This document shows positions 9,331 to 55,720 of a DNA stretch of 64,000 nucleotides, one piece after another. This stretch comes from a virus (Duplodnaviria > Heunggongvirae > Uroviricota > Caudoviricetes), in IMG/VR virus record IMGVR_UViG_2785510761_000002, one strand, 5' to 3'. The translations under genes and the position numbers were made by a program. The notes beneath the pieces are model-generated. The model was given only the letters and a program-made list of their open reading frames with translations. It was not told where the DNA came from and searched no databases. Numbering within the stretch: position 1 is the first letter of the stretch; each line of letters starts with the position of its first letter.

Positions 9331-9977
9331 GGCGAAACCATGCCATTTTCGAGGCTCACACCCCGGTCGCCGGCCCGAGGAGGGTACTTGCGCGCAAACG
9401 GTGCTCCCGCAGCCGATCCCAAGCGCCTGCGTAGAGGCGCCCCGAAAACGGGTGCGGGGCCGGGAAACGAGCGTCCAGGGCCGTTTCCGGCCGCGTTCAA
9501 CCTCTATCGGCGCCCCGAGGACGCGCAGTGCTCCTGAAATCGGCTGAATCGTGGTCGTTATGCACGCGCGCCTACGCGCGTACGCGGGCGCGCGCCCGAC
9601 CGGGGGAAACACTCGCGATTGGACGAAAATCTGAAATGCAGTGTGCGCTCCGTCATGCTGTGAGTTGAGACGCTAGATACCTCGAAAGAGCCGCATACCC
9701 CCACCCCTCAGCAAAAAATGGTTGCTGCGACCTGTCACAGGTTTGTCACGGTAGGCTCAGTCGAGCGTTCCCTCGCCTACCGTGCGGTTTGAGCATTCAC
9801 CTTGCAGAGGATGGGCGCCTTCAATTCGCTTCACTGGTGCTGGCGATTACGCTGCGGCAGTAACAAGCATTCTCACACTGGCGGGTCGGCTTCTCGTCAG
9901 CCGGAGGCATTGATCCGTGTGATCCCGGCTTGCATGTCGTTGAGGGTAAACGAGGCGTGCCGCGCATAAGAGTGTGC

Positions 9978-16600: not shown

Positions 16601-17372
16601 GATGAAGGCAAGCCCCGCTCTCGGCAACATCAAAAACCAGGCGGCGATGATCCTTCTGGGCAAGGCCTCGTTTGGCCAGCGTGCGTCAGCGTTCAAAAAT
16701 GTGGAGCTTGCTCCTGAACTGGGCGAGAACGTGCCAAAGGGCCGCGGCATCTTTGAAAGCTCAGAAGGCGCTCCGACAATGTTCCAGGCCTGGTACGGGG
16801 CCGACTTCGCAGAGTTCGAGACAGGACCGGAAGCAGAAGCTGCGCACCTCCGGAACATGGTCGACCACATCAGCGCAGCCCGCGACCCAGAGGCGGATCA
16901 ACTGTTCGATGATGACCTCCGCCCAGATGAGTCGGAGATCCGTGCGTTCGGGGAGATCATCCAGCCAGACGCGGCAGAGGATTTCGAGGACGAGGTGATT
17001 GACATGGGGGAGATCGACCTGGAAATCAGCTTCGATGAATTTGACCTCGGCGACGCTGCACAGGATACGACTTCCACTGTGGGGGATGCCCAACTTGAAA
17101 CAGCAGTGACCGCGCTCGAAACGGCCGTGGATCACAATCTCGAGCCTGAGCCTGAGCCGGAGCCTCAGTGGGAGTCCGATATGGTCGTGGAGCCCATCAC
17201 GGAGCCTTCCTCACCCGAGGTGAGTATTGAACAAGCGAACCAGCCTCAGACCATGGATCCAGCAACCGAAGGGGCTCGAGAGCCAGGCGAGCCCGGAGGT
17301 GAAGGTGCCGACGGTATGTTCACCAGAAAGCAATTCTCCAGACCCTCAATGGCCGATGATCTGTTCAAGTAA
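13632..17372 (+). CDS. FtsK/SpoIIIE-family membrane ATPase (DNA-translocase-like; TraB/TraSA- or EccC-like)
   Basis: 1246 aa (TTG start). Four or more N-terminal TM helices. Walker A VLLGATGSGKS, Walker B MIVVIDEF, LVAGQTL. Long acidic low-complexity C-terminus. Confidence 0.75.
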   Translation: MATSKQIEQPPPYTVITLVVTVALCAVALFLQWPAAVIALVGILVAASLSRSPQLTGPKDPQTQYPTVGNPGEQQALNRHRFWRTVPGKLLSCGPFWPLTTNMLAAIGVGCIAFTLPYEGAGKLLQLIDGVGALPFLPWINGVFSTLLVAGFGAALRSKDPENGPMPPTDLATLLTQSTSRDPKTFALLVLAVSGALLTGLGTSWWIAAADWYLIFPGGVAGAGAALIVFALVTHAATVTETRRPWLEACEARATWAARWPSMPKLKEFPQLTSHRRLGASDEVWIDEFQAPAMQGAKFWIDKPVPEGIEPLMPANTMVAFLSVPDVAGDGNPITLSRSATKFRVITWNGDHPLDVTDPKVDRELLSVWFDLKVSASCAAAWGSMFSLIPLHAPEALHVEKDEWIGTETGAWKIEYGVTQGVNLPSSMAECVSSAQLALGQEIEVLPIGTSMFIGAITAETTQLEDDSILEQLASEQEMQAWEKRWKDITGPGMQAPAYFPEHDGQEELDSRTVIFSRLFGAPAGLSAKDYFAKATPDRIQSGLKGASWSTASFYVDPHSKKRYPHLMQIMWSEQQIPLNPARIAPTDSARAATWAITGAINAAFLGAKMQRPEVMSVKPLTSRQSRGHIWEVTLALLDGMTMADVRKNQQKLMAALEGCEWLRVGASTRGCRILFGAMPSSRRTWANKDAETSARKLDWEQHFIDSKIKNAREETPELLDVAPLPKNDLVREYRFKMPAGLAIGDVKKESGKLQSTTGNGFLDIRQGATPAEMIIQAAEESPMPNLAFFNWDEVDESKAVPFATNIQGEPMAWDPLTDPHVVLLGATGSGKSAAIQSFLTPAAIQGYELHIFDKPKGAADFQYLVPFSKQVATEYVTIAAALENVYKEVERRKELNQQYGASRVRNLPDEVRPPHMIVVIDEFTSTIKPELLDKITGDETEDQLREREFNVRTNQYKGRIGAAVGKIMREARSAGVSMLVAGQTLSADEMKASPALGNIKNQAAMILLGKASFGQRASAFKNVELAPELGENVPKGRGIFESSEGAPTMFQAWYGADFAEFETGPEAEAAHLRNMVDHISAARDPEADQLFDDDLRPDESEIRAFGEIIQPDAAEDFEDEVIDMGEIDLEISFDEFDLGDAAQDTTSTVGDAQLETAVTALETAVDHNLEPEPEPEPQWESDMVVEPITEPSSPEVSIEQANQPQTMDPATEGAREPGEPGGEGADGMFTRKQFSRPSMADDLFK

Positions 17373-27163: not shown

Positions 27164-28083
27164 AGTACGCCCTCCGTCCTTCTAAGATTCTCTCTGAGTT
27201 GATTCTTGATGTTGCAAACTTCCTGTTCACCGTACAACGAGTTGTCGTAGGTTTCGACGAGAATGCGCAGCGCTTTCTCGTCCGCTTCAAGCAATGGCTT
27301 GCGGTGCCCATATTGCTCTCGAGCGAACACAGCAAATGATCGGGCTTGAGCCTCAAGCGCATCCTCTCCGAGGAGCTCCTGCTCCTCCTGGGGAGGGAAA
27401 GCCATCCCGAAATCGAACGGCGGCATGGCCCGGTATGACCCGTCTGCCTGCTCGATCACCCCGATGTTGCTGAGGTTGTTGATGCGGTCGGTGTTCCCGA
27501 TGATCAGGTCGAAGGCTGACATTCGGAGGACATCCTCGCTCAGGCTTGCGCCCGTGGAGGAGTTCATTGTCTCGATCTGGCCCTTGAGCCGCTTCCAGTC
27601 GTCGTTCTCAATGAAGAACTCCTCGTCAGAGTCCCAGTCTTCGTCCTCTTCAACGAATTCGTCCGATCGAAAATACGAGAGCTGCCGTTCGCGCTCTCCG
27701 ACGCTCTTGAAGTTGTGGGATTCGACACCGATCAGCAGGTTGCCGTCTGCGTCTCGGAAATGCTTAGCGTCATACTGCACGGCGTTTTCGAGGCCCATGG
27801 CGAGTGCTGCTCGCCCGGGGAACTCCTCGCGAATGGCCTCGTCGTGCATGGCATCGAGCTTGATGTACGTGTCGCGGTACGGGTCGTAGAACTTCTGCGT
27901 TGATCCACCCATGACACGTGATGTCGAGTCTTCAGCTACGAGCGCGCTGAGCTCACGCACCTCCCTGACTCCGGCATTCACCGGTGGAGCAGCGATATCT
28001 CGTTCGTGTGCAGCGAAGCTTCCGCCGCTGCCGCCTGCTGCGGTTCTCCCGAGTCCGATGTCTTTCCTGCGCGATGTGCTCAC
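27124..28083 (-). CDS. leader-family protein 2 (GTG start: VSTSRRKDIGLGRTAAGGSGGSFAAHERD..PP)
   Basis: Start set at the GTG preceded by GCCGCGCGTAATCATTCAG. The conserved leader is followed by a unique 280-aa region. Confidence 0.65.
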   Translation of the reverse strand: MSTSRRKDIGLGRTAAGGSGGSFAAHERDIAAPPVNAGVREVRELSALVAEDSTSRVMGGSTQKFYDPYRDTYIKLDAMHDEAIREEFPGRAALAMGLENAVQYDAKHFRDADGNLLIGVESHNFKSVGERERQLSYFRSDEFVEEDEDWDSDEEFFIENDDWKRLKGQIETMNSSTGASLSEDVLRMSAFDLIIGNTDRINNLSNIGVIEQADGSYRAMPPFDFGMAFPPQEEQELLGEDALEAQARSFAVFAREQYGHRKPLLEADEKALRILVETYDNSLYGEQEVCNIKNQLRENLRRTEGVLWRRKSPSVTGAL

Positions 28084-31037: not shown

Positions 31038-32144
31038 CTACCGCCCTTGACGGTCGAGGGCCTCGATCTGCATGTCTTCCCACTCCCGTTGACCCTCAGG
31101 TGAGAGCAGCGAGAAGGTGATTGGACGTTCGATCCCGGCGTTTGCGATTCGCTCTCTGCGGAACCAGTCATCAAGCTCAGCTTTACTTGGCTCGGTACCG
31201 ACACCGAGTGACACACGCTTCACCTGAGCTTCAAGTGCAGGATCCTGCTCACACGCACCGCGGCCGACGATGTGAGAGTTCGTGTTCATCATGATGTGCG
31301 CCCGCTTCACGGAAGTGGAGATGGTGTCCATCGCATCTGGGTCACCCCACGGAAGATCATCTTCCGAGCCGAAATCGGCCCCGTCCTCGTAGTCGGTGTA
31401 AATGAAGTCCCGAGTTTCACCGTCTTCATCACGGAAGCTCCAGGTGGTGAAGAATCTGTCGGAATCATCCGTACCAAAGTTCGCCGACTCCATGCTCCAG
31501 CCTTCAGGCCATGCGGGAGCAGCCCCAACCTCCAGGTCAACCTGACGTGCAGGGATAGCGAGAGACTGGGATTTCGCTCCAGACACGGGATGCTGCGTGA
31601 TCGGACCTGTGCCGTACCGCTGCTGATCTGCCGAGGCGGGCAGAGAGCTGTCGACCAGCTGCAGGACTGGTGAGTACCTCTCGTTGTCTGCGAATAGTGG
31701 TGAGGTGTCGTATAAGCCGAGCTCGTCGACGAAGCCCGCCAGCTCGTCAGAAGCGTCAATGTCGAGTGCGTAGTATCCGCCGCTGTTCGGATCTCGCAGC
31801 CCCGCGAATCGATACTGCCCGGGGTTGTCATCTGACGGGTTGAGCTGAATCTGGGTGTAGCCAGGCGGGATGCCATATCGCTCAGCCAACTGCTCCGCCT
31901 TGGCGCTCAGCAGTTCCAGCTGCTCATCCGCCTCTTCGCGCTCAAGCGCAGCGCGCCTGTCGGCGATGGCTTCGAGGCGGCTGGCGCGCTGTCGGAGGAT
32001 CTCGTCAAGCTCTTCCGTATCGTTGATGCTGCTCGCTGGCGGGGGATCGGCGGTGGTTCTCTCGTGACTGGCGAATGACCCGCCGCTGCCGCCCGAAGCG
32101 GTCTTGCCAAGCCCATGGTCCTGTCTGCGCGTGATGTTGCTCAT
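31038..32144 (-). CDS. leader-family protein 3 (MSNITRRQDHGLGKTASGGSGGSFASHERTTADPPP plus a unique acidic C-terminal region)
   Basis: Conserved leader. Upstream motif GCCGCTCGTAATCTGCGT-ATG. Confidence 0.7.
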   Translation of the reverse strand: MSNITRRQDHGLGKTASGGSGGSFASHERTTADPPPASSINDTEELDEILRQRASRLEAIADRRAALEREEADEQLELLSAKAEQLAERYGIPPGYTQIQLNPSDDNPGQYRFAGLRDPNSGGYYALDIDASDELAGFVDELGLYDTSPLFADNERYSPVLQLVDSSLPASADQQRYGTGPITQHPVSGAKSQSLAIPARQVDLEVGAAPAWPEGWSMESANFGTDDSDRFFTTWSFRDEDGETRDFIYTDYEDGADFGSEDDLPWGDPDAMDTISTSVKRAHIMMNTNSHIVGRGACEQDPALEAQVKRVSLGVGTEPSKAELDDWFRRERIANAGIERPITFSLLSPEGQREWEDMQIEALDRQGR

Positions 32145-32173
32145 ACGCAGATTACGAGCGGCAAGTTCCTGAT

Positions 32174-33217
32174 CTACTGGCCGTGGATTTTCCCATCGTC
32201 TCCGATGTACAGGTCAACTGAGCCGTGTGTTTTTGCTGCTGAGGTCATGCGGTCTCCGAGTTCACCCAGTCCACGGTCCCAGAAGCCCGATCCATGCCGG
32301 TTGCGAGTGAGCCAGAAATCGTGGCCGAGCTGTGCCATGCGCTCATTTCGATCCTGCCCAATTGCGTCACTCACCATGTACTCGTTCACGAGCTGCCGGT
32401 TCGAGATCATGAAATTGGCGAGGTCATCCTTCATTTCGTTCTTGAGAACGTCAGAAAGGTCCTCCTCGTCGTACTCGTCTTGGAACTTGCCGAGGTCGTT
32501 GCCTCCTTCATCAGTGCGTGGCGTGCTCCACATGGCGGCGCCATAGTAACTGTCGTACAGGTGCTCACGCTCGGTTTCATCACGCACCGCCCAAGCGAGC
32601 TTGTCTTGGCCGGTGTCCATGCCGTCGAACCCGCCGTCAAAATCTTCAGCGAAGCCCCAGTGAAGCGCTCCGCCTCCTTGGCAGCTGTCGTACTCTCGAA
32701 GCGCCGCAACGCTGACGCGCGCTTCGTCGAGCTGGTCAACAGGGATTTCGTACTGGGAAGCGATGTGCTCCGGCATACCTTCTTCGCTCAGCAGCGAAGC
32801 GACTTCGCTTGCATAGTGCTCACGTCGATGCTCTTCAAACTCGCCAAGCGCCATCGCGTCAAAGCCGGTATTGGTATCTGCAGCAGTATGCAAGACAGGC
32901 TGCTCTGCGTTGCCTTGGTCCGCGAATTTCTGCACCAGATCTTTGCGCTCCACTGGCGTTGCTTCCGCGACTCTCAGGACGAGATCGTTCAGCGCATCGT
33001 AGTCTTCGTCGGTCTTGGCGTTCCAGCCCATGTGGCTGAGTTGCTGGGTGAGCTCATCGTTCAACGAATAGAGCTCCTCCATGGTGAGGCTAGATGGGTC
33101 AACGTGAGCAACCGGCGGAGACGCAGCGGACCTCTCGTGTGATGCGAATGACCCGCCGCTGCCGCCCGAAGCGGTCTTGCCAAGCCCATGGTCCTGTCTG
33201 CGCGTGATGTTGCTCAT
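32174..33217 (-). CDS. leader-family protein 4
   Basis: Start moved to the internal ATG (MSNITRRQDHGLGKTASGGSGGSFASHERSAASPP). The first 100 nt or so of the CDS plus the 5' UTR are nearly identical at DNA level to the 31038..32144 paralog. Confidence 0.7.
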   Translation of the reverse strand: MSNITRRQDHGLGKTASGGSGGSFASHERSAASPPVAHVDPSSLTMEELYSLNDELTQQLSHMGWNAKTDEDYDALNDLVLRVAEATPVERKDLVQKFADQGNAEQPVLHTAADTNTGFDAMALGEFEEHRREHYASEVASLLSEEGMPEHIASQYEIPVDQLDEARVSVAALREYDSCQGGGALHWGFAEDFDGGFDGMDTGQDKLAWAVRDETEREHLYDSYYGAAMWSTPRTDEGGNDLGKFQDEYDEEDLSDVLKNEMKDDLANFMISNRQLVNEYMVSDAIGQDRNERMAQLGHDFWLTRNRHGSGFWDRGLGELGDRMTSAAKTHGSVDLYIGDDGKIHGQ

Positions 33218-33887: not shown

Positions 33888-34889
33888 CTAGAACTCACCC
33901 GAGGCGTGGCCGCGGCGAAGGGCGTCCGCCATGCGGCGATCCTCATCCTCGTCCCGCTTGAGAGCGGCAGCGACAAGAGTTCTGTCACCGCCCGGGCCGG
34001 CATCCGGTGCCTGCTCTCGCACATTTGCGCTCAGATGATAGTCCGATGTCGAATAGCCGCGCATCGAGTCTGACTCATGGTCATTCCACTGATCCCCGAT
34101 GGCGCTGAGGGTCTGAGTGATGTTGCTCGCAGTGATTGATGGACGGCCCCGGTCTGTCCGCTGCCAGTAGACGAGATCCTCTTCTGACATCCCTTTTGGT
34201 GCACGTCTGTAAGCGGTGCCCTCGGGCACTTCCGCTGTCACCTGGATGCTCTGGCTTCCACGGCTCTTCGCGGTCGTCACGAAGACCTTGCCTGGTGGGA
34301 GCGCACCCCACTCCTGGGCGCGTTTCACGTCAGCTCGAATCAGTTTCGCCACCTGTGCGGCATCGACGTGCCCTCCGTCAAGCTCTCCGCGACGAGCGCC
34401 GGTGAACCTGTTGCCGTAGCTGCCGCCGTCGTTTTCTGCTCCCTCAGCAGCAACACCCATATCCCGGAGTCTGCTCCGACGAACTGAAGCCTGCAGCTCC
34501 TCCCCATAATCTTCAGCTTCACGCCATATCCCGGAGACCCCTGCTTTCGGGAAATGCTCAAGCACTTGACGCACGTCTCCCTGGCTGTCGAACGTTACTT
34601 GCAGCCTTCGCTCGTCCGGGGTGCCGTCGTACATATAGCGCTGGATCTCGAATCCGTGCAGGCCACCGCCGTTCCGGCCAAGATCGGTGATGTCGTCGCC
34701 CCATCGATCAGCAATCATCTGGCGGCTGTACTCAGGTGTCTGGACAGAGGCTGAAGTGTGCTCTGGGACGCGATGAGGGGCAGCGGGTGGGGCCGCGCTG
34801 TCTCGTTCGTGGGACGCAAAACTCCCGCCGCTGCCGCCCGCTGCGGTCCTGCCGAGGCCGAGGTTCTGTCTGCGTGTCTGATTGTTCAT
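33888..34889 (-). CDS. leader-family protein 5 (MNNQTRRQNLGLGRTAAGGSGGSFASHERDSAAPP...)
   Basis: Start moved to the internal ATG preceded by GCCGCAAGTAATCTCCATC. Confidence 0.7.
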   Translation of the reverse strand: MNNQTRRQNLGLGRTAAGGSGGSFASHERDSAAPPAAPHRVPEHTSASVQTPEYSRQMIADRWGDDITDLGRNGGGLHGFEIQRYMYDGTPDERRLQVTFDSQGDVRQVLEHFPKAGVSGIWREAEDYGEELQASVRRSRLRDMGVAAEGAENDGGSYGNRFTGARRGELDGGHVDAAQVAKLIRADVKRAQEWGALPPGKVFVTTAKSRGSQSIQVTAEVPEGTAYRRAPKGMSEEDLVYWQRTDRGRPSITASNITQTLSAIGDQWNDHESDSMRGYSTSDYHLSANVREQAPDAGPGGDRTLVAAALKRDEDEDRRMADALRRGHASGEF

Positions 34890-47660: not shown

Positions 47661-47688
47661 GGTACTCCTGTCTGGCCAGGTGGCCGGG

Positions 47689-48093
47689 TTATGCGGTGCC
47701 CGTCGAGCCGAAGCCTGCGGTGCCGCGTTCGGTGTCGTCGAGGCTGTCCGCCTCCACGATGGTTGGTGAGATGAACGGGGTGATGACCAGCTGCGCGATG
47801 CGCATTCCCGGCTCCACGGTGAAGGGCTGGTCACCGTGGTTGATGAGGTTCACCCCTACATCGCCGCGGTACCCGGAATCGACAACGCCAGGCCCGTTGA
47901 CGACTCCGATCCCATGTTTTGCTGCGAGGCCAGAACGTGGGCAGACCAGACCGACAGTCCCGGCCGGCAGTGCGATCCTGGTGCCAGTGGGGAGTAACTG
48001 GTGCTCGCCCGGTGCGAGCGTGACGGCCTCCGCGTCTGGGTCGTATCGGAGGTCCAGCCCAGCATCTCCGGGGTTTGCTGCGGCTGGAACCAC
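47689..48093 (-). CDS. dut: dUTP diphosphatase
   Basis: Motifs AGLDLRY, RSGLAAKHGIGVVNGPGVVDSGYRGDVGVNLINHG, RIAQLV. The true start is uncertain: the ORF extends to 48258 through an AT-rich stretch, and a GTG at 48093 gives a canonical-length protein. Confidence 0.75.
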   Translation of the reverse strand: MVPAAANPGDAGLDLRYDPDAEAVTLAPGEHQLLPTGTRIALPAGTVGLVCPRSGLAAKHGIGVVNGPGVVDSGYRGDVGVNLINHGDQPFTVEPGMRIAQLVITPFISPTIVEADSLDDTERGTAGFGSTGTA

Positions 48094-48281
48094 ACCGACA
48101 ACGTGAAGCTCATCGTCCTTCGAGGCGCAGGTTGGGGTGGACTTGGGTCCTCGAATGGCGGAGTATCTCAAGAAAATCTCGAAAAACATGTACGAGCCGA
48201 TGAGTACGCAAATGAGCGAAATGTACACGAAAATGAGAAGGTGAAAAGCATCAGTCATGCCTTTGTGAATGCGCGGCGCCG

Positions 48282-49571
48282 CTAAAATCCGCCGATCCGA
48301 GCTCGGCGCTCACGGTCAGCCTGCTTCTCCCGCTGCGCTTTGAGTCGGTCCTCGTGGGAGCCTTCGCGCACCTTCCTTTTTTCCTCTTCCTCCTTGCGGA
48401 GAGCCAGGTACTTCTCCTGAGATTCGAGCAGCGCCTTGCGCGCTGGTGCGACCGCACGGTGCGCTTCGACGAAGTTTCTCCCGTGGAGGCCGCCGTGCTC
48501 CGCTTCAAGCTTGCGCACCTTCGCCTCCTTGCGGAGCGAATCCTCCCTCTGCAGGTCGGCGGGGGTGCGCTCGTCGGGGATCGAGTCGAGGTAGTCGAAC
48601 GTGGCTTTGGAGACGCGATACGAGGAATGATCATCCTGAACGATGGCGTAACGGAATTTGATGTTCGCCCCTTCGCCCTCGGCGTAAACCGAGCGGTGAG
48701 AGGCCCCGTCACGCTCGAGGATTTGGTGCAGCGAGCGCACGTTACCCTCGCGGTCGCGCCATAGCTGATCAAGGTCCTTGTTGATGCGCTGGCGCGCAGC
48801 CCCGGTTACGGAATCGGGGATGCGGTCGGGGATCGCAACCGGTTTGTTTTTTGGCTTCTCCTCCACCTCTTTGAGCGGAAGCTGGGGGTGGCGATCTTGG
48901 TCAGCGACGAAATGACCCTGGCTCTTGTCGTGCGCCCGGTACTCGTCGCGATCGACCAGAAATTCGGCCTCGTCTCCGTCCGACTTCCGGTGACCTGAGA
49001 TCACCACCTTGTCGGGGAACGCCTCACTTCCGCGCGCGGAGACCACTGCGAATTCGTTGAATGCTTGCTGATCAGCGAGCCGCTCACGGAGCACACCTGA
49101 CTGCTCCGGTGACACTTTCTGGCCGGTGGCTTTCTCGAATTCATCCGGGTACCACTCGCGCAGTCCACGCTCCGCGACCTCTCGCATGTATTCCGGGTCG
49201 TTGTGAGAGAACTCGTGAGCCATCTCGTCAGCGAAGTAGTAGAACGGGGCGTGAGATTCGCAGTCCTCCTCGTACCAGCCGTTCTTCTGTCGAAGCGCCG
49301 GAGGGATTTTGGCGTTCCGTTCACGGCTGAGCTTCACGCCGCCGTGCCCTGCAGTGGAAACGATGGAAATGCCCGGCGCGGGCTGTGTCACATGATCTGC
49401 GTTGCCCCACGGGGTGCGGGAGTCCACATGGATGCCAGTGTCGCCCCAGTTCTGATGTTCAACAGCCGGAGGTGGCGTGGCAGTGCTGCGTTCATGTGAC
49501 GCGAAACTTCCGCCGCTGCCACCGTTCGCTGTCGCCCCGAGTCCCTGGTCTTTGCGCCGTGAAGTGCTCAT
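48282..49571 (-). CDS. leader-family protein 6 (MSTSRRKDQGLGATANGGSGGSFASHERSTATPPP...)
   Basis: Conserved leader. Upstream GCCGTCAGTAATCAACGC-ATG. Confidence 0.7.
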   Translation of the reverse strand: MSTSRRKDQGLGATANGGSGGSFASHERSTATPPPAVEHQNWGDTGIHVDSRTPWGNADHVTQPAPGISIVSTAGHGGVKLSRERNAKIPPALRQKNGWYEEDCESHAPFYYFADEMAHEFSHNDPEYMREVAERGLREWYPDEFEKATGQKVSPEQSGVLRERLADQQAFNEFAVVSARGSEAFPDKVVISGHRKSDGDEAEFLVDRDEYRAHDKSQGHFVADQDRHPQLPLKEVEEKPKNKPVAIPDRIPDSVTGAARQRINKDLDQLWRDREGNVRSLHQILERDGASHRSVYAEGEGANIKFRYAIVQDDHSSYRVSKATFDYLDSIPDERTPADLQREDSLRKEAKVRKLEAEHGGLHGRNFVEAHRAVAPARKALLESQEKYLALRKEEEEKRKVREGSHEDRLKAQREKQADRERRARIGGF

Positions 49572-49631
49572 GCGTTGATTACTGACGGCAGCGCGCGCTC
49601 GGTCGCACTTGGTGCCCTTAAGCGGCAGAGC

Positions 49632-50549
49632 TTAGAGGAACGGAGCGCGGGCGTGCTGGCGGTAGGTGCTTGCGCTCCTTGCGGAGCTGGGATCATCCCG
49701 GCGAGCACGTTCGCGGATGTCGTCCGGCACGTCGATCTGCGCGCTGAGAATCACCCAGGCCGCGGTGCCGGTGATTTTCTGATCCGGGTTTCGGCGAGCA
49801 TCATGCACGCGTGCGATGGCCTCGTACGTGATGCTTTCGGCGTGGAAGTTTTGATCCTCAAGCGTGTCGGCCAGGGTGAGCAGGTTGTCGTGCTCGTTGT
49901 CGCTCAGCTCACCGCGAGTGGCGGGGCCGAGAGTGTCGTCTGCGAGCTGTTTTCCGCGAAGCATCTGCGCGTCGGTGAGCCCGTCGCCGGCCGCGGCCTC
50001 AGTGTTCAAACGGTCGGCTCGATACGCTGCGGGCTGGTCGCTCTCGTGCTCAGTGCCACCGTGCTTTGCGTATCGCTCACAAAGCGCCGACAGCTCACCC
50101 TGCTTCTTCTGAGTCTTCGAGTCTGCTGCGTACTGCCTGCACTCTGCCGCCAGGTCGTGGCTCACGTGCCCGTCGTCGAGAAATCTGCGGAGAGCGGGGT
50201 ACTTCTTCAGTGCGCTGATCTGCATCCGATGATCCGGCCCACGCCAGGCGTGGGCCATAGCAAGCCGCCAGTCAGCCTGACGAACAGTGCCTTCTTCGCT
50301 CAGTGAATCGTCGATCCAGTTGATGTCCGACTTGATCCGCCCGTTTTTGTAGGCCAGCAGTCGCTCCTCAGCCGCATTCCAGATGCGGGCGTGCGCGCTT
50401 TGCTCGGCCGCCAGGGCGCTGATGTGCTCGCTCAACGAAATAGGAGGCGGCGTAGCCCCTTCACGTTCATGGGCGGCGAAGCTGCCGCCGCTGCCGCCAG
50501 CTGCGGTCTTCCCGAGGCCATGATCCTGTCTACGCGAGATGTTGCTCAT
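49632..50549 (-). CDS. leader-family protein 7 (MSNISRRQDHGLGKTAAGGSGGSFAAHEREGATPPP...)
   Basis: Conserved leader. Upstream GCCGCTCGTAATACCGCC-ATG. Confidence 0.7.
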   Translation of the reverse strand: MSNISRRQDHGLGKTAAGGSGGSFAAHEREGATPPPISLSEHISALAAEQSAHARIWNAAEERLLAYKNGRIKSDINWIDDSLSEEGTVRQADWRLAMAHAWRGPDHRMQISALKKYPALRRFLDDGHVSHDLAAECRQYAADSKTQKKQGELSALCERYAKHGGTEHESDQPAAYRADRLNTEAAAGDGLTDAQMLRGKQLADDTLGPATRGELSDNEHDNLLTLADTLEDQNFHAESITYEAIARVHDARRNPDQKITGTAAWVILSAQIDVPDDIRERARRDDPSSARSASTYRQHARAPFL

Positions 50550-50556
50550 GGCGGTA

Positions 50557-51033
50557 TTACGAGCGGCTGAGCGGGACTACGAAGATCATTTCGCCGTCAG
50601 GATCCTCTGTCTCTACGGACGCTGAGGTCTCAGTGAAGTTCATGTGGTTGACGAGCGCTCTCATCTCCTGCTCGTCATTGTTGGTGATCTGCATCTCATT
50701 CCCGAACTCATCGCGAACCGAGTAGAAGACAAGCTGCGAGCTGTCTTCTGGGGCGTAGTCCAGTGTCACCGCAGACACCTCCTCATCCGGGAAGAGTCCA
50801 CCAGTTCCGGCAATCAGGGTGTCGTTGATCGCCTGAAGGTGCTGCGCTGAATCCACACCATCTCGTGAAGCTGTCTCATGCAGCTGAACAAGGTGACCGT
50901 CCACCGTAAGGATGCCGGTAGCCCGGGGCGGAACATCAGCTGTATCACGTTCATGCGCAGCAAAACTGCCGCCGCTGCCGCCTGCAGCTGTCCTCCCGAG
51001 ACCTTGATCTTGCCTGCGCACATTGTTGCTCAT
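50557..51033 (-). CDS. leader-family protein 8 (MSNNVRRQDQGLGRTAAGGSGGSFAAHERDTADVPP...)
   Basis: Start moved to the internal ATG preceded by GCCGCCCGTAATACTGTGC. Confidence 0.7.
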   Translation of the reverse strand: MSNNVRRQDQGLGRTAAGGSGGSFAAHERDTADVPPRATGILTVDGHLVQLHETASRDGVDSAQHLQAINDTLIAGTGGLFPDEEVSAVTLDYAPEDSSQLVFYSVRDEFGNEMQITNNDEQEMRALVNHMNFTETSASVETEDPDGEMIFVVPLSRS

Positions 51034-51090
51034 GCACAGTATTACGGGCGGCACCGCCATGTAGCTGCCGCCCGTCACTGCGCCAATGGC

Positions 51091-51903
51091 CTAATGATCA
51101 GCGGGGCGTGCCGCGTGGATTGCGTCGAAGAAGGCGTGCGAATCTTCGTCGTCATTCGGGCGCCCGCTCTCGTACCTCTCCATCGCTTCGTCGACCCAGG
51201 CGTCGATGTCCCCGTCTTCGAAGAAGGTGACGCGCTCTCCGTCGTTCATCTCGTTGGCTGACTCGCCAAGATGCGTGCGTAGTTCCTGTTCAAAGTCGCC
51301 GCGAGAGCGCACGTTGCCGATCACATCTCCGCTGCTGCGCATGTTTGACCAGAGCCGGGAGAATGAGTTGTCGTCAAACTCACCGTCGGTGTCGATGTAC
51401 CGACGGTGCAGACCTGTCAGGTCTGCGGCAAGTGCCTCGTCGAGGTCGACGGAGTGGGTGGCGTATTCACGCTTCGAGTACGGCACTGGTCGCGGTGAGT
51501 CGAGCGCCAGTTCCGTGAAAAAATCGTCGTCATCGTCGGAGATGTCGATGCTACTGCCGTCAGAACGAGTGATCTCGCTGAAGCTCCAACAGTTCTCCCC
51601 GTCGCCGTTCTCCAGCATCTCAAAAGTGTGGGCGTCCGGGTATTGCTGCTTTACGTGGGCGGCGACCTGCATGTCATACAGCTGTTCAGACTGCTGTTGC
51701 AGTTTCTTCTGCATGTCAAGGAAATGCTGCTGCGTTTTCTCGGCTTGGCGCACGAGGCTGGCGTACTGCTCAGGCGTGCGCTGCACGGACTGCGCCGGGG
51801 GAGCCGCTGCTGATGCACGGTCGTGTGAGGCGAAACTGCCGCCGCTTCCGCCGGCCGCGGTCTTCCCGAGGCCCTGATCCTGTCTGCGAGTGATGTTGCT
51901 CAT
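51091..51903 (-). CDS. leader-family protein 9 (MSNITRRQDQGLGKTAAGGSGGSFASHDRASAAAPP...)
   Basis: Start moved to the internal ATG preceded by GCCGCCCGTAATAACTGC. Confidence 0.7.
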   Translation of the reverse strand: MSNITRRQDQGLGKTAAGGSGGSFASHDRASAAAPPAQSVQRTPEQYASLVRQAEKTQQHFLDMQKKLQQQSEQLYDMQVAAHVKQQYPDAHTFEMLENGDGENCWSFSEITRSDGSSIDISDDDDDFFTELALDSPRPVPYSKREYATHSVDLDEALAADLTGLHRRYIDTDGEFDDNSFSRLWSNMRSSGDVIGNVRSRGDFEQELRTHLGESANEMNDGERVTFFEDGDIDAWVDEAMERYESGRPNDDEDSHAFFDAIHAARPADH

Positions 51904-51958
51904 GCAGTTATTACGGGCGGCACAGCGCCCCGCCATGCCGCGCGTGTTCACCAACGCA

Positions 51959-53368
51959 TCAGTCGATGTTGTTCGCGACGAGCCACTCGGGACTGTACTC
52001 ACGCACGAATCCTGCATTGATGTGCACCTGACGGCGCTCGTGCTGCAGGGCAGAGATGTCGTCATGCAACTGGTTGTAGTGAGCGTCGAGCTTGTCGAGC
52101 TCTGCTTCGCTCACCGAATCCCGGTCGAATCGTGCATGCCTGTCGCCGTACGCGCGGAGTTCCCGCTGTTTCGCTGAGAGCTGCGCTCCCAGGTCGCTGA
52201 GTGCCTGCTGCTGAGCCTGCGGCGACAGCCTGCCGTCACTATTGCGCTCGTACTTCTGCTCGTCGTACTGTGCGTCGGTCATGTCGTTCACGTCTACGTC
52301 GTAGTAGGGCTTGTGCACGCCGGCGGTGTCATCCCAGCCGTACCTGCCAGCTGAGCCACCGGAGTCCAGGTGCGCTGGTCGATCGCTGTCCAGTGTCACG
52401 GTGAGCGGGACGCTGAGCTGGGCGTCGTAGCCGGAACCGTTCACGGTGTCGAGCAAGACAATCGATGATTTCCCTGTTTGGTTCTCTCGGCTTCCGAGTG
52501 GTGCGCCGCCGATGCGGATGGTTCGCCCCTGCTCGGGGTCGCTGGAGGCGCGAGCGTCGCGGATGTCGCCGTACCAGATCGCATCCAGCCGGACCCCTTC
52601 ATGCCAGTAGTGCGGCCCTTCCGTGGCGAGCGAGCGCACCTGGGCGCGATCCTCGGCAGTGAACTGTGATGTGTCCACGCCGATCTCGCCGAGGTGCCGC
52701 AACAGGTAGTCCTCACGAGCTTCGATGGCCTTGTCGGCGTTGCCGTCGTATAGCTGCGCGCTCGTGTATCCGCGCTCGTTCTCTCGCTCCCATTCGGTAG
52801 CGTGGTCGAGCAGCGCCCCTTGGCTCAGCGGCGCTCGCATCAGCTGGGAGTGGGTGTTCTTAGCGAGGCCTTCCTGAGGGTCGCTGGTGTCGTGCTCTTC
52901 GACGATCTCCCGGAGACGATCCTTCACTGTATCGTCAACGTCGATAGGGTCAGCGCCCCACTCTTCGAGCATCTCATTGACCTGCTCTTCCGCAGCGGTC
53001 CTGCGGTGCTCGAAGAACAGCTCCTGTAGTTCGTCGTCGAGCTCGCCGTCCACGTCGCCGGCAAGGTACGTGTCGATCTGCTCGTCGAAAAGCTGGTCGT
53101 CGTAGTCGATGAAGATGAGGTCTGATGATGTGTTGGATTGTGCCCAGTTCGAGGCGACATCCCAAAGCTCCTCGTCGCTGAACTCGTTATCATCGCAGCC
53201 GTCTCCGAGGAAGTTGATCACCTCTTGGTTCGGGATAGTGCTCTTCTCCGGCTCTGACAGGGCAGGCCCATCTGTCGGTGCGCGGTCATGGCTCGCGAAG
53301 CTCCCGCCGCTGCCACCCGCCGCGGTCTTCCCGAGACCCTGATCCTGCCTGCGCGTAATGTTGCTCAT
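51959..53368 (-). CDS. leader-family protein 10 (MSNITRRQDQGLGKTAAGGSGGSFASHDRAPTDGP...)
   Basis: Conserved leader. Upstream GCCGCTCGTAATCAGCTGT-ATG, only about 20 nt after the stop of the upstream gene. Confidence 0.7.
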   Translation of the reverse strand: MSNITRRQDQGLGKTAAGGSGGSFASHDRAPTDGPALSEPEKSTIPNQEVINFLGDGCDDNEFSDEELWDVASNWAQSNTSSDLIFIDYDDQLFDEQIDTYLAGDVDGELDDELQELFFEHRRTAAEEQVNEMLEEWGADPIDVDDTVKDRLREIVEEHDTSDPQEGLAKNTHSQLMRAPLSQGALLDHATEWERENERGYTSAQLYDGNADKAIEAREDYLLRHLGEIGVDTSQFTAEDRAQVRSLATEGPHYWHEGVRLDAIWYGDIRDARASSDPEQGRTIRIGGAPLGSRENQTGKSSIVLLDTVNGSGYDAQLSVPLTVTLDSDRPAHLDSGGSAGRYGWDDTAGVHKPYYDVDVNDMTDAQYDEQKYERNSDGRLSPQAQQQALSDLGAQLSAKQRELRAYGDRHARFDRDSVSEAELDKLDAHYNQLHDDISALQHERRQVHINAGFVREYSPEWLVANNID

Positions 53369-53387
53369 ACAGCTGATTACGAGCGGC

Positions 53388-54102: not shown

Positions 54103-54633
54103 GTGCTGGGACGTTACCTGAGGAAAGGGAAGAATGAGATGGACGGCAATAGTGCTGCGGATTTAGTCGCGGCTGAAACCCCGGAGGGTCTTGGTGAGCG
54201 CGGTGAGCGGATTGATGCAGCTCGCGAGCTTGACCTCGTTGTCTCTGCGTTCGGAGACAAACGCCCGTGGACATTAGACGGCTTCGTGGAGGGCATCCCA
54301 TGGCCTGCAGAGCATGCCTCCCTGTTTGAAGCGGCTTCGTTACTTCGCGATGACGATGAGATCGGTTTTGACACCCCGATGATCAACCTGGAGCATGCAG
54401 GACATCTCGGAGATGCCACCGACCGGCTCGACTCCATTCGCGGAGCGTGGGAGGCCGAGGGGCGCACCGTGTTCCAGATGAAGGAGTCGCCAGACGGCGG
54501 GCAGGTTGCGTACATTTGGTCATATGGCCATGGACTGAAGACAGAAGTCTCTGCGCATGCCTCAGACGATGAGACGCTCTTCAGAGTGGAGATCACCGTG
54601 ACGGCCCCGCCTCCGGGGGTAGGCCGCATGTAA
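54103..54633 (+). CDS. hypothetical protein
   Basis: 176-aa ORF; alternative start MDGNSAADL. Confidence 0.45.
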   Translation: MLGRYLRKGKNEMDGNSAADLVAAETPEGLGERGERIDAARELDLVVSAFGDKRPWTLDGFVEGIPWPAEHASLFEAASLLRDDDEIGFDTPMINLEHAGHLGDATDRLDSIRGAWEAEGRTVFQMKESPDGGQVAYIWSYGHGLKTEVSAHASDDETLFRVEITVTAPPPGVGRM

Positions 54634-54640
54634 TGCAGGC

Positions 54641-54859
54641 ATGAAGACCAGCACGCGACGGGGCGATCTCGGCCTCGGCAAGACCGCACGCGGTGGAAAC
54701 AACGGAAGCTATGTAGTCCACGAAAGGCAGGACGGCGCGCCTCCGCCCCTATCGCAAAGATCGCTTGATCGCGGGTTTGACACGCTCGACGAGAAACTTG
54801 CTGCAATGACGCAGGAAGTCTCAGAGGCGGTAGAGCGGCTGCAGGGCGACGACGAGTGA
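54641..54859 (+). CDS. leader-only minigene of the leader family (MKTSTRRGDLGLGKTARGGNNGSYVVHERQDGAPPP plus a 35-aa tail)
   Basis: Only plus-strand family member. Preceded by GCCGCATGTAATGCAGGC-ATG. Immediately upstream of the ArdC-like gene. Confidence 0.55.
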   Translation: MKTSTRRGDLGLGKTARGGNNGSYVVHERQDGAPPPLSQRSLDRGFDTLDEKLAAMTQEVSEAVERLQGDDE

Positions 54860-54877
54860 CATAGGTACCTGGACGCA

Positions 54878-55720
54878 ATGTCGCGGCTTCACTCGTACTC
54901 CCTTGGTAACCAGCTTCTGATCGCGCTCCAAAAACCAGAAGCCACCCATGTCGGCGGGCAAGGCATGTGGAAGAGCATCGGCAGGCAGCTCCTCCCTGCC
55001 GAAGAACGTGGCAGCGGGATCAGCATCTTCCGCCCTATTTCCGGGTTCAGGGACCGGGCAGACGTTAACGGCTTCCCGGTGCTTCGGGACGACGGAAAGC
55101 CACTCCGGGATCGTGTGGTCATCATGTACTCAGCGGCCACGGTCTACGATGTCCCACAAACCTCTGGCACTCCTCTGCCAGAAGACATGATTGCTCAGAA
55201 CCTGTCCGGCGATGTGCCACGGGGGTTCGAAGAGGACACCGACTTGAGCATCGGACGGATCGGCTATGCGCTGAGCGAAGAGGAGCTGACCGGGGGCCGG
55301 AAGGGGTCCACCACCACGAACGGCAGCAAGCGAATCGTCATCAAAGCAGGACTGCCTCCATCGGAGCGTGTCCGAGCAAAGATGCACGAGGTCGGTCATG
55401 TCGCCGCGGGACATGTGAACGAGCAACACTACCTCGAATGCCACACGGGCGCCGGCGGCATGAGCAGCTCGATGGAGGTGGAGGCTGATTCAATTGGCCA
55501 CGTTATGCTGCGCATGAACAGCATGAATCCGAACTCCGGCATCTCACAGTATGCCGCCGGGTGGGCGAGCGTGCAGAGCGACGATCCTGACGTGGTGAAG
55601 AACACAGCCGCAGGGGTGCTGAGGGCAGTGAAAACGCTGATCAGCGAACATGACTGGAGGAATGCAATCACCCTTGAGAGGCCGCCAGCTGAGCCGCGCA
55701 ACAGCTCGGCATGCAGATAG
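54878..55720 (+). CDS. ArdC-like anti-restriction protein (N-terminal ssDNA-binding domain plus HExxH metalloprotease domain)
   Basis: N-terminus YSLGNQLLIALQ...GGQGMWKSIGRQL resembles ArdC-N. C-terminal HEVGHVAAGH zincin motif. Confidence 0.7.
   Translation: MSRLHSYSLGNQLLIALQKPEATHVGGQGMWKSIGRQLLPAEERGSGISIFRPISGFRDRADVNGFPVLRDDGKPLRDRVVIMYSAATVYDVPQTSGTPLPEDMIAQNLSGDVPRGFEEDTDLSIGRIGYALSEEELTGGRKGSTTTNGSKRIVIKAGLPPSERVRAKMHEVGHVAAGHVNEQHYLECHTGAGGMSSSMEVEADSIGHVMLRMNSMNPNSGISQYAAGWASVQSDDPDVVKNTAAGVLRAVKTLISEHDWRNAITLERPPAEPRNSSACR

Follow-up and report, generated by a model that had tools for sequence, protein, structure and literature searches.

A short N-terminal peptide on proteins with unrelated cargo in a conjugative, megaplasmid-like element

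Why would one mobile element place the same short peptide in front of many proteins whose remaining sequences are unrelated? The question is raised by a window of 64,000 nucleotides (the whole stretch of DNA that was analysed), in which, according to an earlier note made from the sequence alone, eleven open reading frames (ORFs) share an N-terminal leader and have mutually unrelated C-terminal parts. Both claims held: a six-frame scan yielded exactly eleven leader-bearing ORFs, a leader HMM matched 11 of 11 at E = 1e-21 to 1e-26 with zero further matches anywhere in the window, and all-vs-all BLASTP of the cargo, defined as residue 46 to the end, matched no two cargo regions of the window at E < 1e-3. 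The architecture of a conserved N-terminal head and diverse cargo is likewise supported. The leader is N-terminal, basic and about 35 aa long, and its protein alignment has 15 invariant columns, M1, R6, R7, G11, L12, G13, T15, A16, G18, G19, G22, S23, H27, R29 and P35. The tagged genes and relevant neighbours are:

3148..5631, minus strand: cell-wall hydrolase (lysozyme plus M23 peptidase), transfer operon
7721..8857, minus: tagged gene, 378 aa; KTSC domain; adjoins the SSB gene
13632..17372, plus: membrane ATPase of the FtsK/SpoIIIE family, 1246 aa, with a single P-loop; may serve the conjugative apparatus as receptor or translocase
27124..28083, minus: tagged gene, 319 aa, GTG start; within a tRNA array
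31038..32144, minus: tagged gene, 368 aa; leader converted with that of copy 33217
32174..33217, minus: tagged gene, 347 aa; match to phrog_1915 (unknown function) at the C-terminus
33888..34889, minus: tagged gene, 333 aa; orthologue L003:8157, 46% identity
48282..49571, minus: tagged gene, 429 aa; DUF7007 in cargo, E = 4.5e-39
49632..50549, minus: tagged gene, 305 aa; upstream box overlaps the preceding gene's stop codon
50557..51033, minus: tagged gene, 158 aa
51091..51903, minus: tagged gene, 270 aa; fourth tandem gene, corrected start 51903
51959..53368, minus: tagged gene, 469 aa; cargo without known domain and highly acidic (net charge -57)
54641..55720, plus: leader::ArdC-like gene (ArdC-N plus HExxH metallopeptidase), split by a single in-frame stop
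54857..54859, plus: this TGA stop (TGG to TGA), at the site where intact homologues have a nearly invariant Trp

Some details of the initial description required correction. The fourth tandem gene starts at 51903, not 51930, and what had been taken for a leader-only minigene at 54641..54859 is really the 5′ part of the leader::ArdC gene: it lies in frame with the ArdC-like ORF at 54878-55720, and a single TGA stands between them. No member of the family is therefore a leader alone, and the cargo ranges from about 120 to 430 aa rather than down to about 30 aa. One cargo of the family is the anti-restriction protein ArdC, which Foldseek matched to R388 ArdC (6I89, E = 1.4e-8). In an AlphaFold2 model of an intact leader::ArdC homologue, pLDDT is 33-35 at residues 1-37 and above 90 in the body, and the leader is thus predicted to be disordered. 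TM-like segments were found in none of the 11 tagged window genes, and most tagged cargo is strongly acidic. Across tagged genes in general, the cargo set includes ArdC, LigA, a CCA-adding enzyme, Fic, DUF2958 and SprT-like proteins.

The element is conjugative and megaplasmid-like rather than a phage, with Leucobacter luti as its host. Directly left of the window is a VirB4-like AAA_10 ATPase, which belongs to a conjugative context that also comprises the lysozyme/M23 hydrolase, the FtsK-like ATPase, SSB, DprA and ImpB/UmuC; three orphan methylases are carried as well. The examined parts of the contig showed no capsid or terminase genes, and neither leader nor tag matched any of 50,697 phage genomes or anything in IMG/VR. 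The proposal that the leader is confined to mobile elements is supported. The eleven ORFs are thus genes of a conjugative megaplasmid-like element, each encoding a predicted-disordered basic peptide joined to soluble cargo.

The window-type leader is very rare, with 31 cluster representatives among 1.84 billion, and it is an expanded, lineage-specific version of a broader N-terminal tag. The consensus of this broader tag is R-Q-P-x-G-x-P-x-GG-Q-F-A...E-P-x-V-x-L, and the common core is R-Q-[PD]-x-G ... G-G-[QS]-F-A ... R/E. Homology of the two types is supported by orthologous ArdC proteins, which show graded N-termini, and by hhalign at E = 2.8e-4. On related actinobacterial megaplasmids, up to about 9% of genes carry the tag. 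In megaplasmids of Micrococcales (Arthrobacter group) that have the FtsK-like ATPase in common with the window, 24-49 proteins per replicon carry it N-terminally, with 24 to 40+ places per replicon in five of these and 49 tagged ORFs in pACHL01; L008 has 9 tagged genes, L010 has 5, and an integrase-bearing element also has the tag. When the FtsK-like protein of the window is compared with PLSDB, 8 of the 9 best matches are these five Arthrobacter-group megaplasmids and three Curtobacterium plasmids, and a Curtobacterium plasmid carries divergent tag variants. In pACHL01, about 20 tagged genes directly adjoin FtsK-like and VirD4-like genes and are co-oriented with them, and TM-like segments are found in 0 of 29 tagged genes versus 12 of 91 untagged ones. 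Searches of Pfam, NCBIfam, PHROGs, PADLOC, Rfam and the literature returned no description of the tag, which bears out the impression that the leader belongs to no described family; with no Pfam or NCBIfam model or paper found for it, the tag is apparently undescribed.

Since the earlier note had raised the possibility of selection on the RNA, we compared codon positions. Leader identity at positions 1, 2 and 3 is 0.82, 0.85 and 0.44, and different codons are used at 56% of identical residues, including CGN/AGR and AGY/TCN switches. The leader RNA has no conserved fold, and an Rfam search gave no match. Because third positions are free, purifying selection acts on the peptide, not on the RNA. 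The nucleotide conservation claimed over about 100 nt is, beyond a 12-nt upstream box, no more than amino-acid conservation predicts, and what was counted as a 5′ UTR within the common tract is this separate box. Copies 32144 and 33217, described as nearly identical, share a perfectly identical 92-nt tract (-19 to +73), which supports local gene conversion in this one pair. General ongoing recombination at the leader is not supported: a sister element has stable orthologues of six leader-cargo pairs. Array content varies between sister elements.

The box, GCCGCnnGTAAT, is promoter-like, 12 nt long and placed 6-8 nt upstream of ATG or GTG. A scan of the window gave 13 matches versus 3.3 expected, and 11 of the 13 belong to the leader family:

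53376..53387, minus: box GCCGCTCGTAAT, 7 nt before ATG
51910-51921, 51041-51052, 50556-50567 and 49578-49589, minus: equivalent boxes
34897-34908, 33224-33235, 32151-32162, 28091-28102 and 8865-8876, minus: equivalent boxes
54623..54634, plus: box GCCGCATGTAAT of the leader::ArdC gene, 6 nt upstream of its ATG
48266..48277, minus: box variant GCCGCGCATTCA, 7 nt before an untagged dUTPase gene
9960..9971, plus: box variant (G)CCGCGCATAAG, which precedes an untagged GmrSD_C-like gene (ATG 9978) by 7 nt

The variant before the dUTPase gene means that box and tag are separable. Similarly, only 29 of 120 box-plus-ATG genes in pACHL01 are tagged, and about 20 tagged genes there have Shine-Dalgarno-like sites in place of the box. 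The box is thus an element-wide promoter-type feature, distinct from the tag. Given its distance from the start codon and the absence of a Shine-Dalgarno-like sequence from all 11 tagged window genes, the geometry suggests that leaderless mRNAs are the probable transcripts of stand-alone tagged genes. In actinobacterial leaderless genes, the -10 element lies about 7 nt upstream of the ATG or GTG at which transcription starts, and about 120 pACHL01 genes share this geometry. However, GCCGCnnGTAAT / GCCGCACACA does not follow the TANNNT consensus: sigma-70-type -10 elements need A at -11, where the box has G or C, so it may be read by another, element-encoded sigma factor. In pACHL01, the box pairs with its own upstream element, GCGGTGA.

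What, then, does the peptide do? Our leading hypothesis, which we advance tentatively, is that the tag recruits establishment proteins to the conjugation machinery. The tag would be a short linear motif, and a single shared receptor of the element would recognise it, most plausibly the machinery's substrate-recruiting ATPase (FtsK-like or VirD4-like), and establishment and anti-defence proteins would enter the recipient cell together with the DNA. The delivered set would include ArdC, DNA ligase, the tRNA CCA-adding enzyme, Fic, SprT-like proteases and uncharacterised acidic proteins. Two precedents count in favour: a conjugative type IV secretion system (T4SS) carries SSB, PsiB and ParA/B into recipients (PMC8406263), and ArdC-N has been proposed as a ‘header’ of proteins delivered via the conjugation apparatus (PMC5512222). 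Peptide-level selection, disorder, conjugative context, the occurrence of the broader tag on related megaplasmids, the homology of the two tag types, soluble cargo and the separability of box and tag also count for transfer.

Like SSB, PsiB, ParA and ParB of F-like pED208, the primases Sog and TraC, and ArdC as the proposed ‘header’, the tagged proteins are soluble, encoded by conjugative elements and include establishment or anti-defence functions such as ArdC, and their signal would be read by a coupling ATPase. Unlike in those systems, for which we know of no common N-terminal consensus, one consensus is found on 11 to 49 proteins per element; furthermore, the system is Gram-positive (actinobacterial), its transfer is putative, and an FtsK-like ATPase is present, plus a VirD4-like one in pACHL01. 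Several points weigh against transfer. Most translocation signals known from T4SSs lie at the C-terminus or internally, and we know of no precedent for a conjugative system with as many as 49 substrates per plasmid. Co-occurrence with the FtsK-like clade is inseparable from co-inheritance of the whole plasmid backbone. The CCA-adding enzyme and LigA could work equally well in the resident cell, and the classic early-acting SSB and methylases are untagged here. The relaxase is the one certain T4SS substrate; no tagged pACHL01 protein is annotated as a relaxase, and no unannotated pACHL01 protein of at least 990 aa is tagged. Polyvalent proteins of phages and conjugative elements, which join 2-15 domains per polypeptide (Iyer, Burroughs, Anand, de Souza, Aravind 2017; PMC5512222), are similarly proposed to bring many conflict or establishment activities, ArdC-N among them, in with invading DNA, but here the activities reside in separate proteins, each with its own short tag copy. 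That paper does not mention the tag.

The peptide could instead be a degron or proteostasis handle, a disordered basic N-terminus read by an unfoldase, protease or chaperone of host or plasmid, giving the proteins a common controlled lifetime or activation step, such as a burst of activity once they have entered a new host. We consider this unlikely, although the tag is disordered and terminal like N-degrons, its invariant Arg and aromatic residues would suit a peptide-binding pocket, and pACHL01 encodes a J-domain protein and four standalone Clp N-terminal-domain proteins adjoining VirD4-like/FtsK-like genes. The window ORFs tested included no Clp_N protein, constitutive instability is hard to square with LigA or the CCA-adding enzyme, and restriction to one conjugative-element family is explained no better than by transfer. 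Rather improbable, too, is docking without export, in which the tag would tether enzymes to an intracellular hub (plasmid DNA, replisome, SSB, or an RNA-repair/translation module). Such a role would fit the intracellular DNA/RNA enzymes among the cargo (LigA, CCA-adding enzyme, ArdC, SprT-like), the tagged gene within a tRNA array in both sister elements, and the tRNA arrays, tmRNA, Ro, RtcB and Thg1 that tagged elements carry. But no candidate hub was found, most cargo is uncharacterised acidic protein, and DnaE, RtcB and Thg1 (pACHL01), SSB (both elements) and Ro (window) are untagged.

It is very unlikely, and already largely refuted by the free third positions and codon switches, that promoter, start codon and first ~100 nt form a mobile, ORF-capturing 5′ module whose peptide is a passenger kept alike by gene conversion or by RNA needs of leaderless translation. 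The 92-nt tract does begin exactly at the box, sister arrays do differ, and every stand-alone tagged gene has a box and no Shine-Dalgarno. However, the RNA has neither conserved fold nor Rfam match, the tag is kept on Shine-Dalgarno-led operon-internal genes while 91 of 120 box-led pACHL01 genes lack it, and conservation of the motif at the protein level spans lineages in which the FtsK-like proteins share only about 30% identity. Just as improbable are the polymorphic effector cassettes that had been suggested, with the leader as trafficking domain and each toxin paired with an immunity gene. Head-plus-variable-tail layout, tandem arrays, Fic among pACHL01 cargo and a kinase-like motif seen by eye in P0014 cargo (a relative from another sample; Pfam did not confirm it) would agree, but no toxin domain was detected in window cargo, the tandem gaps of 7-60 nt are too small for immunity genes, the cargo includes ArdC, ligase and the CCA-adding enzyme, and the leader, a disordered peptide of 35 aa, lacks the fold of a trafficking domain. 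A phage capsid-targeting or propeptide role (as in T4 internal proteins), also raised earlier, or a Sec/Tat export signal is essentially refuted despite the N-terminal position, the T-R-R motif and the possible cleavage site in the S/A-H-E-R stretch, by the phage, IMG/VR, capsid and terminase results, the T4SS context, the lack of a hydrophobic core (maximum 9-residue hydropathy 0.36) and a twin-arginine that is not conserved (the broader tag has a single Arg).

The tag resembles T4 capsid-targeting sequences and encapsulin cargo-loading peptides in being a short terminal peptide common to unrelated cargo, but those peptides belong to phages or encapsulin operons, where a capsid or scaffold recognises them, whereas the tag occurs in T4SS elements and in none of the phage collections searched. 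T3SS signals are also N-terminal and disordered, with little requirement on cargo sequence, but they have no strict sequence consensus as the tag does, and no T3SS is present here. Finally, the cargo of 49632..50549 resembles by eye P0012, from another sample; the gene at 51959..53368 has an orthologue in the sister element (L009 827-2236) at 74% identity, and that at 27124..28083 forms the best-conserved orthologue pair, at 89%.

A six-frame scan of the window bears out the gene family that the earlier note had proposed, and finds exactly eleven ORFs that begin with the leader, an N-terminal peptide of about 35 residues. These ORFs start at the following positions:

53368, minus strand, leader-bearing ORF
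51903, minus strand, leader-bearing ORF (the fourth tandem gene, whose start we corrected to this position)
51033, minus strand, leader-bearing ORF
50549, minus strand, leader-bearing ORF
49571, minus strand, leader-bearing ORF
34889, minus strand, leader-bearing ORF
33217, minus strand, leader-bearing ORF
32144, minus strand, leader-bearing ORF
28083, minus strand, leader-bearing ORF with a GTG start
8857, minus strand, leader-bearing ORF
54641, plus strand, leader-bearing ORF preceding an ArdC-like ORF

A leader HMM recovers all eleven from the six-frame translation of the window at E = 1e-21 to 1e-26, with no match beyond them. Their alignment contains 15 invariant columns and has the consensus MSNxTRRQDxGLGKTAAGGSGGSFASHERxxAxPPP. 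The remainder of each protein, its cargo, is 120-430 aa long, and each tagged protein carries one. The cargo parts are mutually unrelated, as had been claimed, in that no pair of window members is alike beyond residue 45 by BLASTP at E < 1e-3, and no C-terminal sequence is common to the cargo regions. The statement that the leader belongs to no described family also stands, since Pfam, NCBIfam, PHROGs, PADLOC and Rfam give no significant match to leader residues 1-40 or to the 5′ region.

Selection falls on the peptide. When the eleven copies are compared over 24 core codons, pairwise identity averages 0.82, 0.85 and 0.44 at codon positions 1, 2 and 3, and in 56% of identical residue pairs the codons differ, with CGN/AGR and AGY/TCN switches among them. 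RNAalifold applied to 14 leader regions yields no meaningful structure (-3.7 kcal/mol, almost no covariation), and the only Rfam matches in the window are tRNAs and tmRNA, with none at the leader sites. We therefore reject the RNA-level explanation of the conservation that the earlier note had considered. Its other suggestion, recombination or gene conversion at the leader, applies to one pair of copies: those at 32144 and 33217 are identical over a 92-nt tract that runs from exactly the upstream box (see below) to codon 25, with unrelated flanks, which indicates recent local conversion. It does not apply generally. Six window genes have orthologues with the same leader, in conserved order, in a sister element from another sample (loci L003 and L009), and the cargo identity of these pairs is 46-89%, so there is no general concerted evolution of leaders. 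The content of the tandem array differs, with a 96-aa tagged gene (P0021) following the 469-aa orthologue in L009 (519-2236) where the window (51091-53368) has a 270-aa gene. Tagged genes are thus gained and lost in the array.

The ORF at 54641-54859, previously taken for a leader-only minigene, is instead the 5′ part of a longer gene. It shares its reading frame with the ArdC-like ORF at 54878-55720, from which a single TGA separates it, and intact homologues of 359-366 aa with the full leader span both ORFs. This makes the eleventh member a leader::ArdC gene with a nonsense change, TGG to TGA, at 54857-54859, where intact homologues have a nearly invariant Trp. Direct Pfam scores of the window's ArdC-like gene are below threshold (ArdcN, E = 0.085; M78, E = 0.051), while its distant homologues match ArdcN (PF08401) and Peptidase_M78 (PF06114), and the HExxH motif is invariant among ArdC-like homologues. 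An AlphaFold2 model of an intact homologue (P0033) matches crystal structures of R388 ArdC (6I89, E = 1.4e-8; 6SNA, E = 2.4e-6). The stretch 54641-55720 thus encodes an ArdC-N ssDNA-binding domain followed by an HExxH metallopeptidase, in a reading frame broken by the one TGA. A second assembly, made from a separate sequencing run (Logan SRR8450050, locus L002), has the two ORFs split in the same way. An untagged product without the first part of ArdC-N would result from restart at ATG 54878, and the split gene may be a pseudogene, be read through or yield two products.

The leader is rare. Among 1.84 billion cluster representatives, an exhaustive HMM search found only 31 proteins at E < 1e-3, and nearly all carry it at the N-terminus. 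The main apparent exception, P0019 (461 aa, from another sample), has what by eye is a HipA-type kinase-like body with the leader sequence at its C-terminal end, and probably reflects a gene call that runs on into the tagged gene downstream. Tblastn finds no window-type leader in PLSDB plasmids or INPHARED phages, and IMG/VR and the JGI metagenomes also lack it. GTDB representatives contain it on one 2.3-kb contig of a Leucobacter MAG, and a Saprospirales MAG gives one weak match to the first 15 residues only. (A word-indexed protein search with the leader and tag profiles returned one protein or short fragments, a result that says nothing on distribution.)

The N-termini of ArdC orthologues, however, form a gradient between the full leader and a shorter motif, R-x-P-K-G-x-P...GGQF, which we call the broader tag. 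Elements that encode these ArdC proteins carry further short-motif genes: nine in locus L008, from an element that also has an integrase, SSB and DnaE, and five in L010. By tblastn, matches to the short-motif consensus in PLSDB are confined to eight records, namely five Arthrobacter-group megaplasmids with 24 to 40+ places each and three Curtobacterium plasmids with one each; 50,697 phage records gave no match for either the leader or the broader tag. In pACHL01, the megaplasmid of P. chlorophenolicus A6 (NC_011879.1), a whole-plasmid HMM scan found 49 tagged ORFs among about 541 features. The tag is strictly N-terminal in all 49 of these and in all eleven window genes. When the two profiles are compared with each other, RRQDxG...GGSFAxHxR is matched to RQPxG...GGQFAxxxRxE at E = 2.8e-4 with a probability of 41%, which is weak on its own; because the ArdC N-termini form a graded series, homology of the two tag types is nevertheless likely. 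No model in Pfam, NCBIfam, PHROGs or PADLOC covers the broader tag, and literature searches, including motif strings (GGQFA and others), papers on pACHL01 and conceptual queries, found no description of it. As far as these searches show, both forms are undescribed. The arrangement is familiar in kind, as a terminal recognition peptide on diverse cargo, and unfamiliar in form, as an N-terminal consensus that marks about 9% of one megaplasmid's genes.

The window corresponds to bases 99153-163152 of the 163-kb contig SNYA01000009.1 (NCBI assembly GCA_004362775.1), whose proteins are named Leucobacter luti at NCBI. Together with its left flank it encodes:

Transfer-type genes: VirB4-like AAA_10 ATPase; lysozyme/M23 wall hydrolase; 1246-aa FtsK/SpoIIIE membrane ATPase (13632-17372, plus strand)
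DNA-related genes: SSB, SNF2 helicase, three orphan DNA methylases, dUTPase, DprA, ImpB/UmuC polymerase
Ro/TROVE protein, adjoining an array of 21 tRNAs and a tmRNA

The FtsK-like protein combines a polytopic N-terminus with a single P-loop (one Walker A, one Walker B), and it is of the TraB/TcpA-like type, not EccC-like. In PLSDB it is best matched, at about 30% identity over 66-87% of its length, by megaplasmids of Pseudarthrobacter, Arthrobacter, Paenarthrobacter, Curtobacterium and Glaciihabitans, and the eight tag-bearing PLSDB records are all among its nine best. No near-identical relative emerged when 24 kb were compared by megablast with plasmids and phages. The element is of a conjugative megaplasmid type, either plasmid or ICE, and not a phage.

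All eleven tagged window genes are preceded by the 12-nt sequence GCCGCnnGTAAT, which ends 6-7 nt before the start codon. The window contains 13 matches to it, where 3.3 are expected, and 11 of the 13 belong to the tagged family. None of the eleven genes has a Shine-Dalgarno-like sequence, compared with about 12 of 23 untagged genes. In pACHL01 the counterpart is GCCGCACACA, with 222 occurrences against about 47 expected, often paired with GCGGTGA 13-14 nt upstream. The geometry of the window genes recurs in pACHL01, L008 and L010, and also in one Curtobacterium plasmid; in L008, L010 and that plasmid, GCCGC starts 18-19 nt before ATG. In the leaderless layout usual in Actinobacteria, a -10-type element ends about 7 nt before ATG or GTG, there is no Shine-Dalgarno sequence, and the transcript starts at or next to the start codon. 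Solely from this geometry, we read the box as a probable promoter -10-type element with transcripts starting at or beside the start codon. It departs from TANNNT, and a 990-aa sigma-70-family protein encoded by pACHL01 might be its reader. A scan of the tandem array for canonical sigma-70 promoters and terminators found no promoters, and terminators at chance level. Many of the pACHL01 boxes (CAGCCGCAC; e.g. at 50534, 59444 and 201052 of the record) are, we take it, part of the reverse complement of the 16S rRNA 3′ end, the matching stretch presumably being the ...GATCCAGCCGCA primer region; the geometry speaks against any part in positioning the start codon.

Box and tag are clearly separable. 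Variants of the box occur at the same spacing before two untagged window genes, the dUTPase gene (box at 48266-48277) and a gene starting at 9978. In pACHL01 the box also precedes tRNAs, the tmRNA and many ordinary genes; only 29 of the 120 boxes followed by ATG or GTG at 8-10 nt and an open frame belong to tagged genes, while about 20 operon-internal tagged genes lack it and have GGAG-like sites instead. The "shared 5′ UTR" previously ascribed to the family is therefore real as conserved upstream sequence in all eleven genes, but it is a separate, element-wide box rather than a feature of the family.

Structure prediction had been proposed as a check on the leader, and AlphaFold2 predicts it to be disordered: in the intact leader::ArdC homologue pLDDT is 33-35 at residues 1-37 and above 90 in the body, and the leader is not docked on the cargo. 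It is basic (+1 to +4) and rich in Gly, Ser and Ala, with a maximum 9-residue Kyte-Doolittle hydropathy of 0.36 and no hydrophobic core. TM-like segments are found in 0 of 29 tagged pACHL01 proteins and 0 of 11 tagged window proteins, compared with 12 of the 91 box genes that have no tag (for pACHL01 alone, Fisher p = 0.038). Cargo is acidic in 10 of the 11 window genes, with net charge down to -57, and in pACHL01 the median net charge is -12 for tagged cargo against -5 for untagged proteins. Four window genes (51959-53368, 32174-33217, 31038-32144 and 51091-51903) encode proteins whose net charge lies between -31 and -57 and whose Asp plus Glu content is 20-22%, a composition that we take to resemble that of DNA-mimic anti-restriction proteins such as ArdA and Ocr. 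Most cargo has no recognisable function, and the recognisable part is:

ArdC; DUF7007; KTSC; SprT-like peptidases; Fic; CCA-adding tRNA nucleotidyltransferase; NAD-dependent DNA ligase; DUF2958

In pACHL01, ParA, DnaE, a sigma factor, NrdEF, SecYEG, methylases, SSB and the transfer ATPases are untagged. A block of about 20 tagged genes at 200-228 kb is codirectional with adjoining FtsK-like and VirD4-like genes, in a region that contains:

230.6-234.9 kb, FtsK-like gene
237.8-240.3 kb, VirD4-like gene
242.5-246 kb, four standalone Clp_N-domain proteins

What the tagged proteins share is a short linear motif at the N-terminus, conserved and disordered; their cargo is soluble and has no detectable similarity from one protein to another. 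The motif occurs in one family of conjugative elements only, and is independent of each gene's mode of expression. We infer that it is read by one common reader. This reader may be the substrate-recruitment step of the conjugation machinery, in which case the tagged proteins would be sent into the recipient. We favour such recruitment, with predicted delivery, tentatively and at somewhat under an even chance, because the tag is restricted to T4SS elements, because of the known cargo, especially ArdC, and because tagged genes cluster beside coupling-type ATPases. A role for ArdC-N as a delivery "header" has been proposed (PMC5512222). Precedent favours recruitment too, since conjugative T4SSs transfer SSB, PsiB and ParA/B to recipients (PMC8406263). 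Tagged genes lie in elements with VirB4-like, FtsK-like and, in pACHL01, VirD4-like genes, and the tag co-occurs with one FtsK-like clade; a weakness of the conjugation reading is that this co-occurrence is not separable from shared ancestry of the whole backbone. We found no relaxase against which tagging could be judged, and LigA and the CCA-adding enzyme could act in the resident cell instead.

Recruitment by an N-terminal motif would differ from the systems known to us. Known T4SS substrates have C-terminal or internal signals (BID, XVIPCD, charged C-terminal tail), whereas the element shared here is strictly N-terminal, and we know of no T4SS signal at that end, which counts against the conjugation reading. 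Type VII systems have an EccC/EssC ATPase with three P-loop domains, and the single P-loop of the window's FtsK-like protein leads us to reject an EccC-like reading of it; type VII substrates are helical WXG/LXG proteins with a C-terminal YxxxD/E signal, while the leader is predicted to be disordered and not a helical hairpin. Polyvalent proteins carry 2-15 effector domains per polypeptide, in contrast to the one cargo of each tagged protein. (A supposed listing of KTSC, DUF2958, SprT and Fic as polyvalent-protein modules is unsupported by the text of PMC5512222, and we withdraw it.) A more far-reaching form of the conjugation reading, about which we are more doubtful, would make the tag the first N-terminal consensus-type translocation signal of a Gram-positive conjugative apparatus. 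It would define a plasmid-encoded "effectorome" of 10 to about 50 soluble proteins for each element, comprising anti-restriction, DNA-sealing, tRNA-repair and host-modifying enzymes with many acidic proteins that have no assigned function, expressed from leaderless element-specific promoters and injected with the DNA.

Among the alternatives, the tag may be a degron or chaperone handle, which we think unlikely; the Clp_N proteins of pACHL01 offer a lead, and no Clp_N receptor was found among the window ORFs tested. Slightly less likely again is an intracellular docking motif. The rest, an expression-only cassette, toxin cassettes and capsid or Sec/Tat signals, we each consider very improbable. 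In polymorphic toxin systems the toxin domain is C-terminal and the gene for its cognate immunity protein comes next; the earlier suggestion of polymorphic effector cassettes finds no support, because no toxin families were found in the window's cargo and the 7-60 nt intergenic gaps hold no ORFs for immunity genes. A phage capsid-targeting or propeptide sequence, also suggested earlier, is not supported either, since neither tag type has a match in the phage records, IMG/VR has none, and the window and its flanks encode T4SS components. The Tat motif is S/T-R-R-x-F-L-K, whereas the leader has T-R-R-Q-D without F-L-K and the wider family a single Arg (R-Q-P-x-G), and the low hydropathy maximum leaves no h-region for Tat or Sec.

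If the tag is a delivery signal, the proteins that a conjugative element sends to its new host could be listed from sequence. For Gram-positive conjugation these are essentially unlisted, and the list would hold dozens of uncharacterised candidate anti-defence proteins; large conjugative plasmids would carry effector repertoires of pathogen-like size, and the tag would be portable for protein delivery between actinobacteria. Even as a degron or docking motif, one linear motif on about 9% of megaplasmid-class genes, together with a plasmid-specific box, would be an unrecognised layer of organisation.

Several other features of these elements were observed. The tRNA/tmRNA array (22410-30264, minus strand) comprises 21 tRNA genes and a tmRNA (tag ASYKQRDLTLAA), 22 genes together, and Rfam gives one additional weak tRNA at 25963-26043; the syntenic array of sister locus L003 has 22 tRNAs and a tmRNA, and pACHL01 has 40 tRNAs and a tmRNA. 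In both sister elements the tagged gene at 27124-28083 is located within the array, and no other orthologue pair is as well conserved (89%). A Ro60/TROVE-domain protein and an RNase T-like exonuclease (20713-22284 and 20084-20641) directly adjoin the array, and Rfam at gathering thresholds finds no Y-RNA. Three consecutive untagged orphan DNA methyltransferases (N6_N4, Dam-like and C5; 36469-40243) are kept in L003; no restriction partner was found among the window ORFs tested, and they likely serve self-protection against recipient restriction. GmrSD_C-like (9978-10739, plus strand) and GmrSD_N-like (60039-60614, minus strand) domains are on separate genes 50 kb apart, and the box at 9960-9971 suggests that the former starts at ATG 9978, not with the longer ORF from 9930. 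pACHL01 has genes of its own for SecY, SecE, SecG and signal peptidase I, as well as for type IV and Tad pili, RtcB, Thg1, NrdEFI, DnaE and two DNA ligases, and MOB-suite classes it as non-mobilizable despite its VirD4-like and VirB4-like genes. Further window genes (46140-47834, 58865-59818 and 62981-64000) encode a flotillin/SPFH protein, a DprA-like DNA-processing protein and an ImpB/UmuC Y-family polymerase; the polymerase gene continues past the end of the window, some 100 bp short of where the contig stops.
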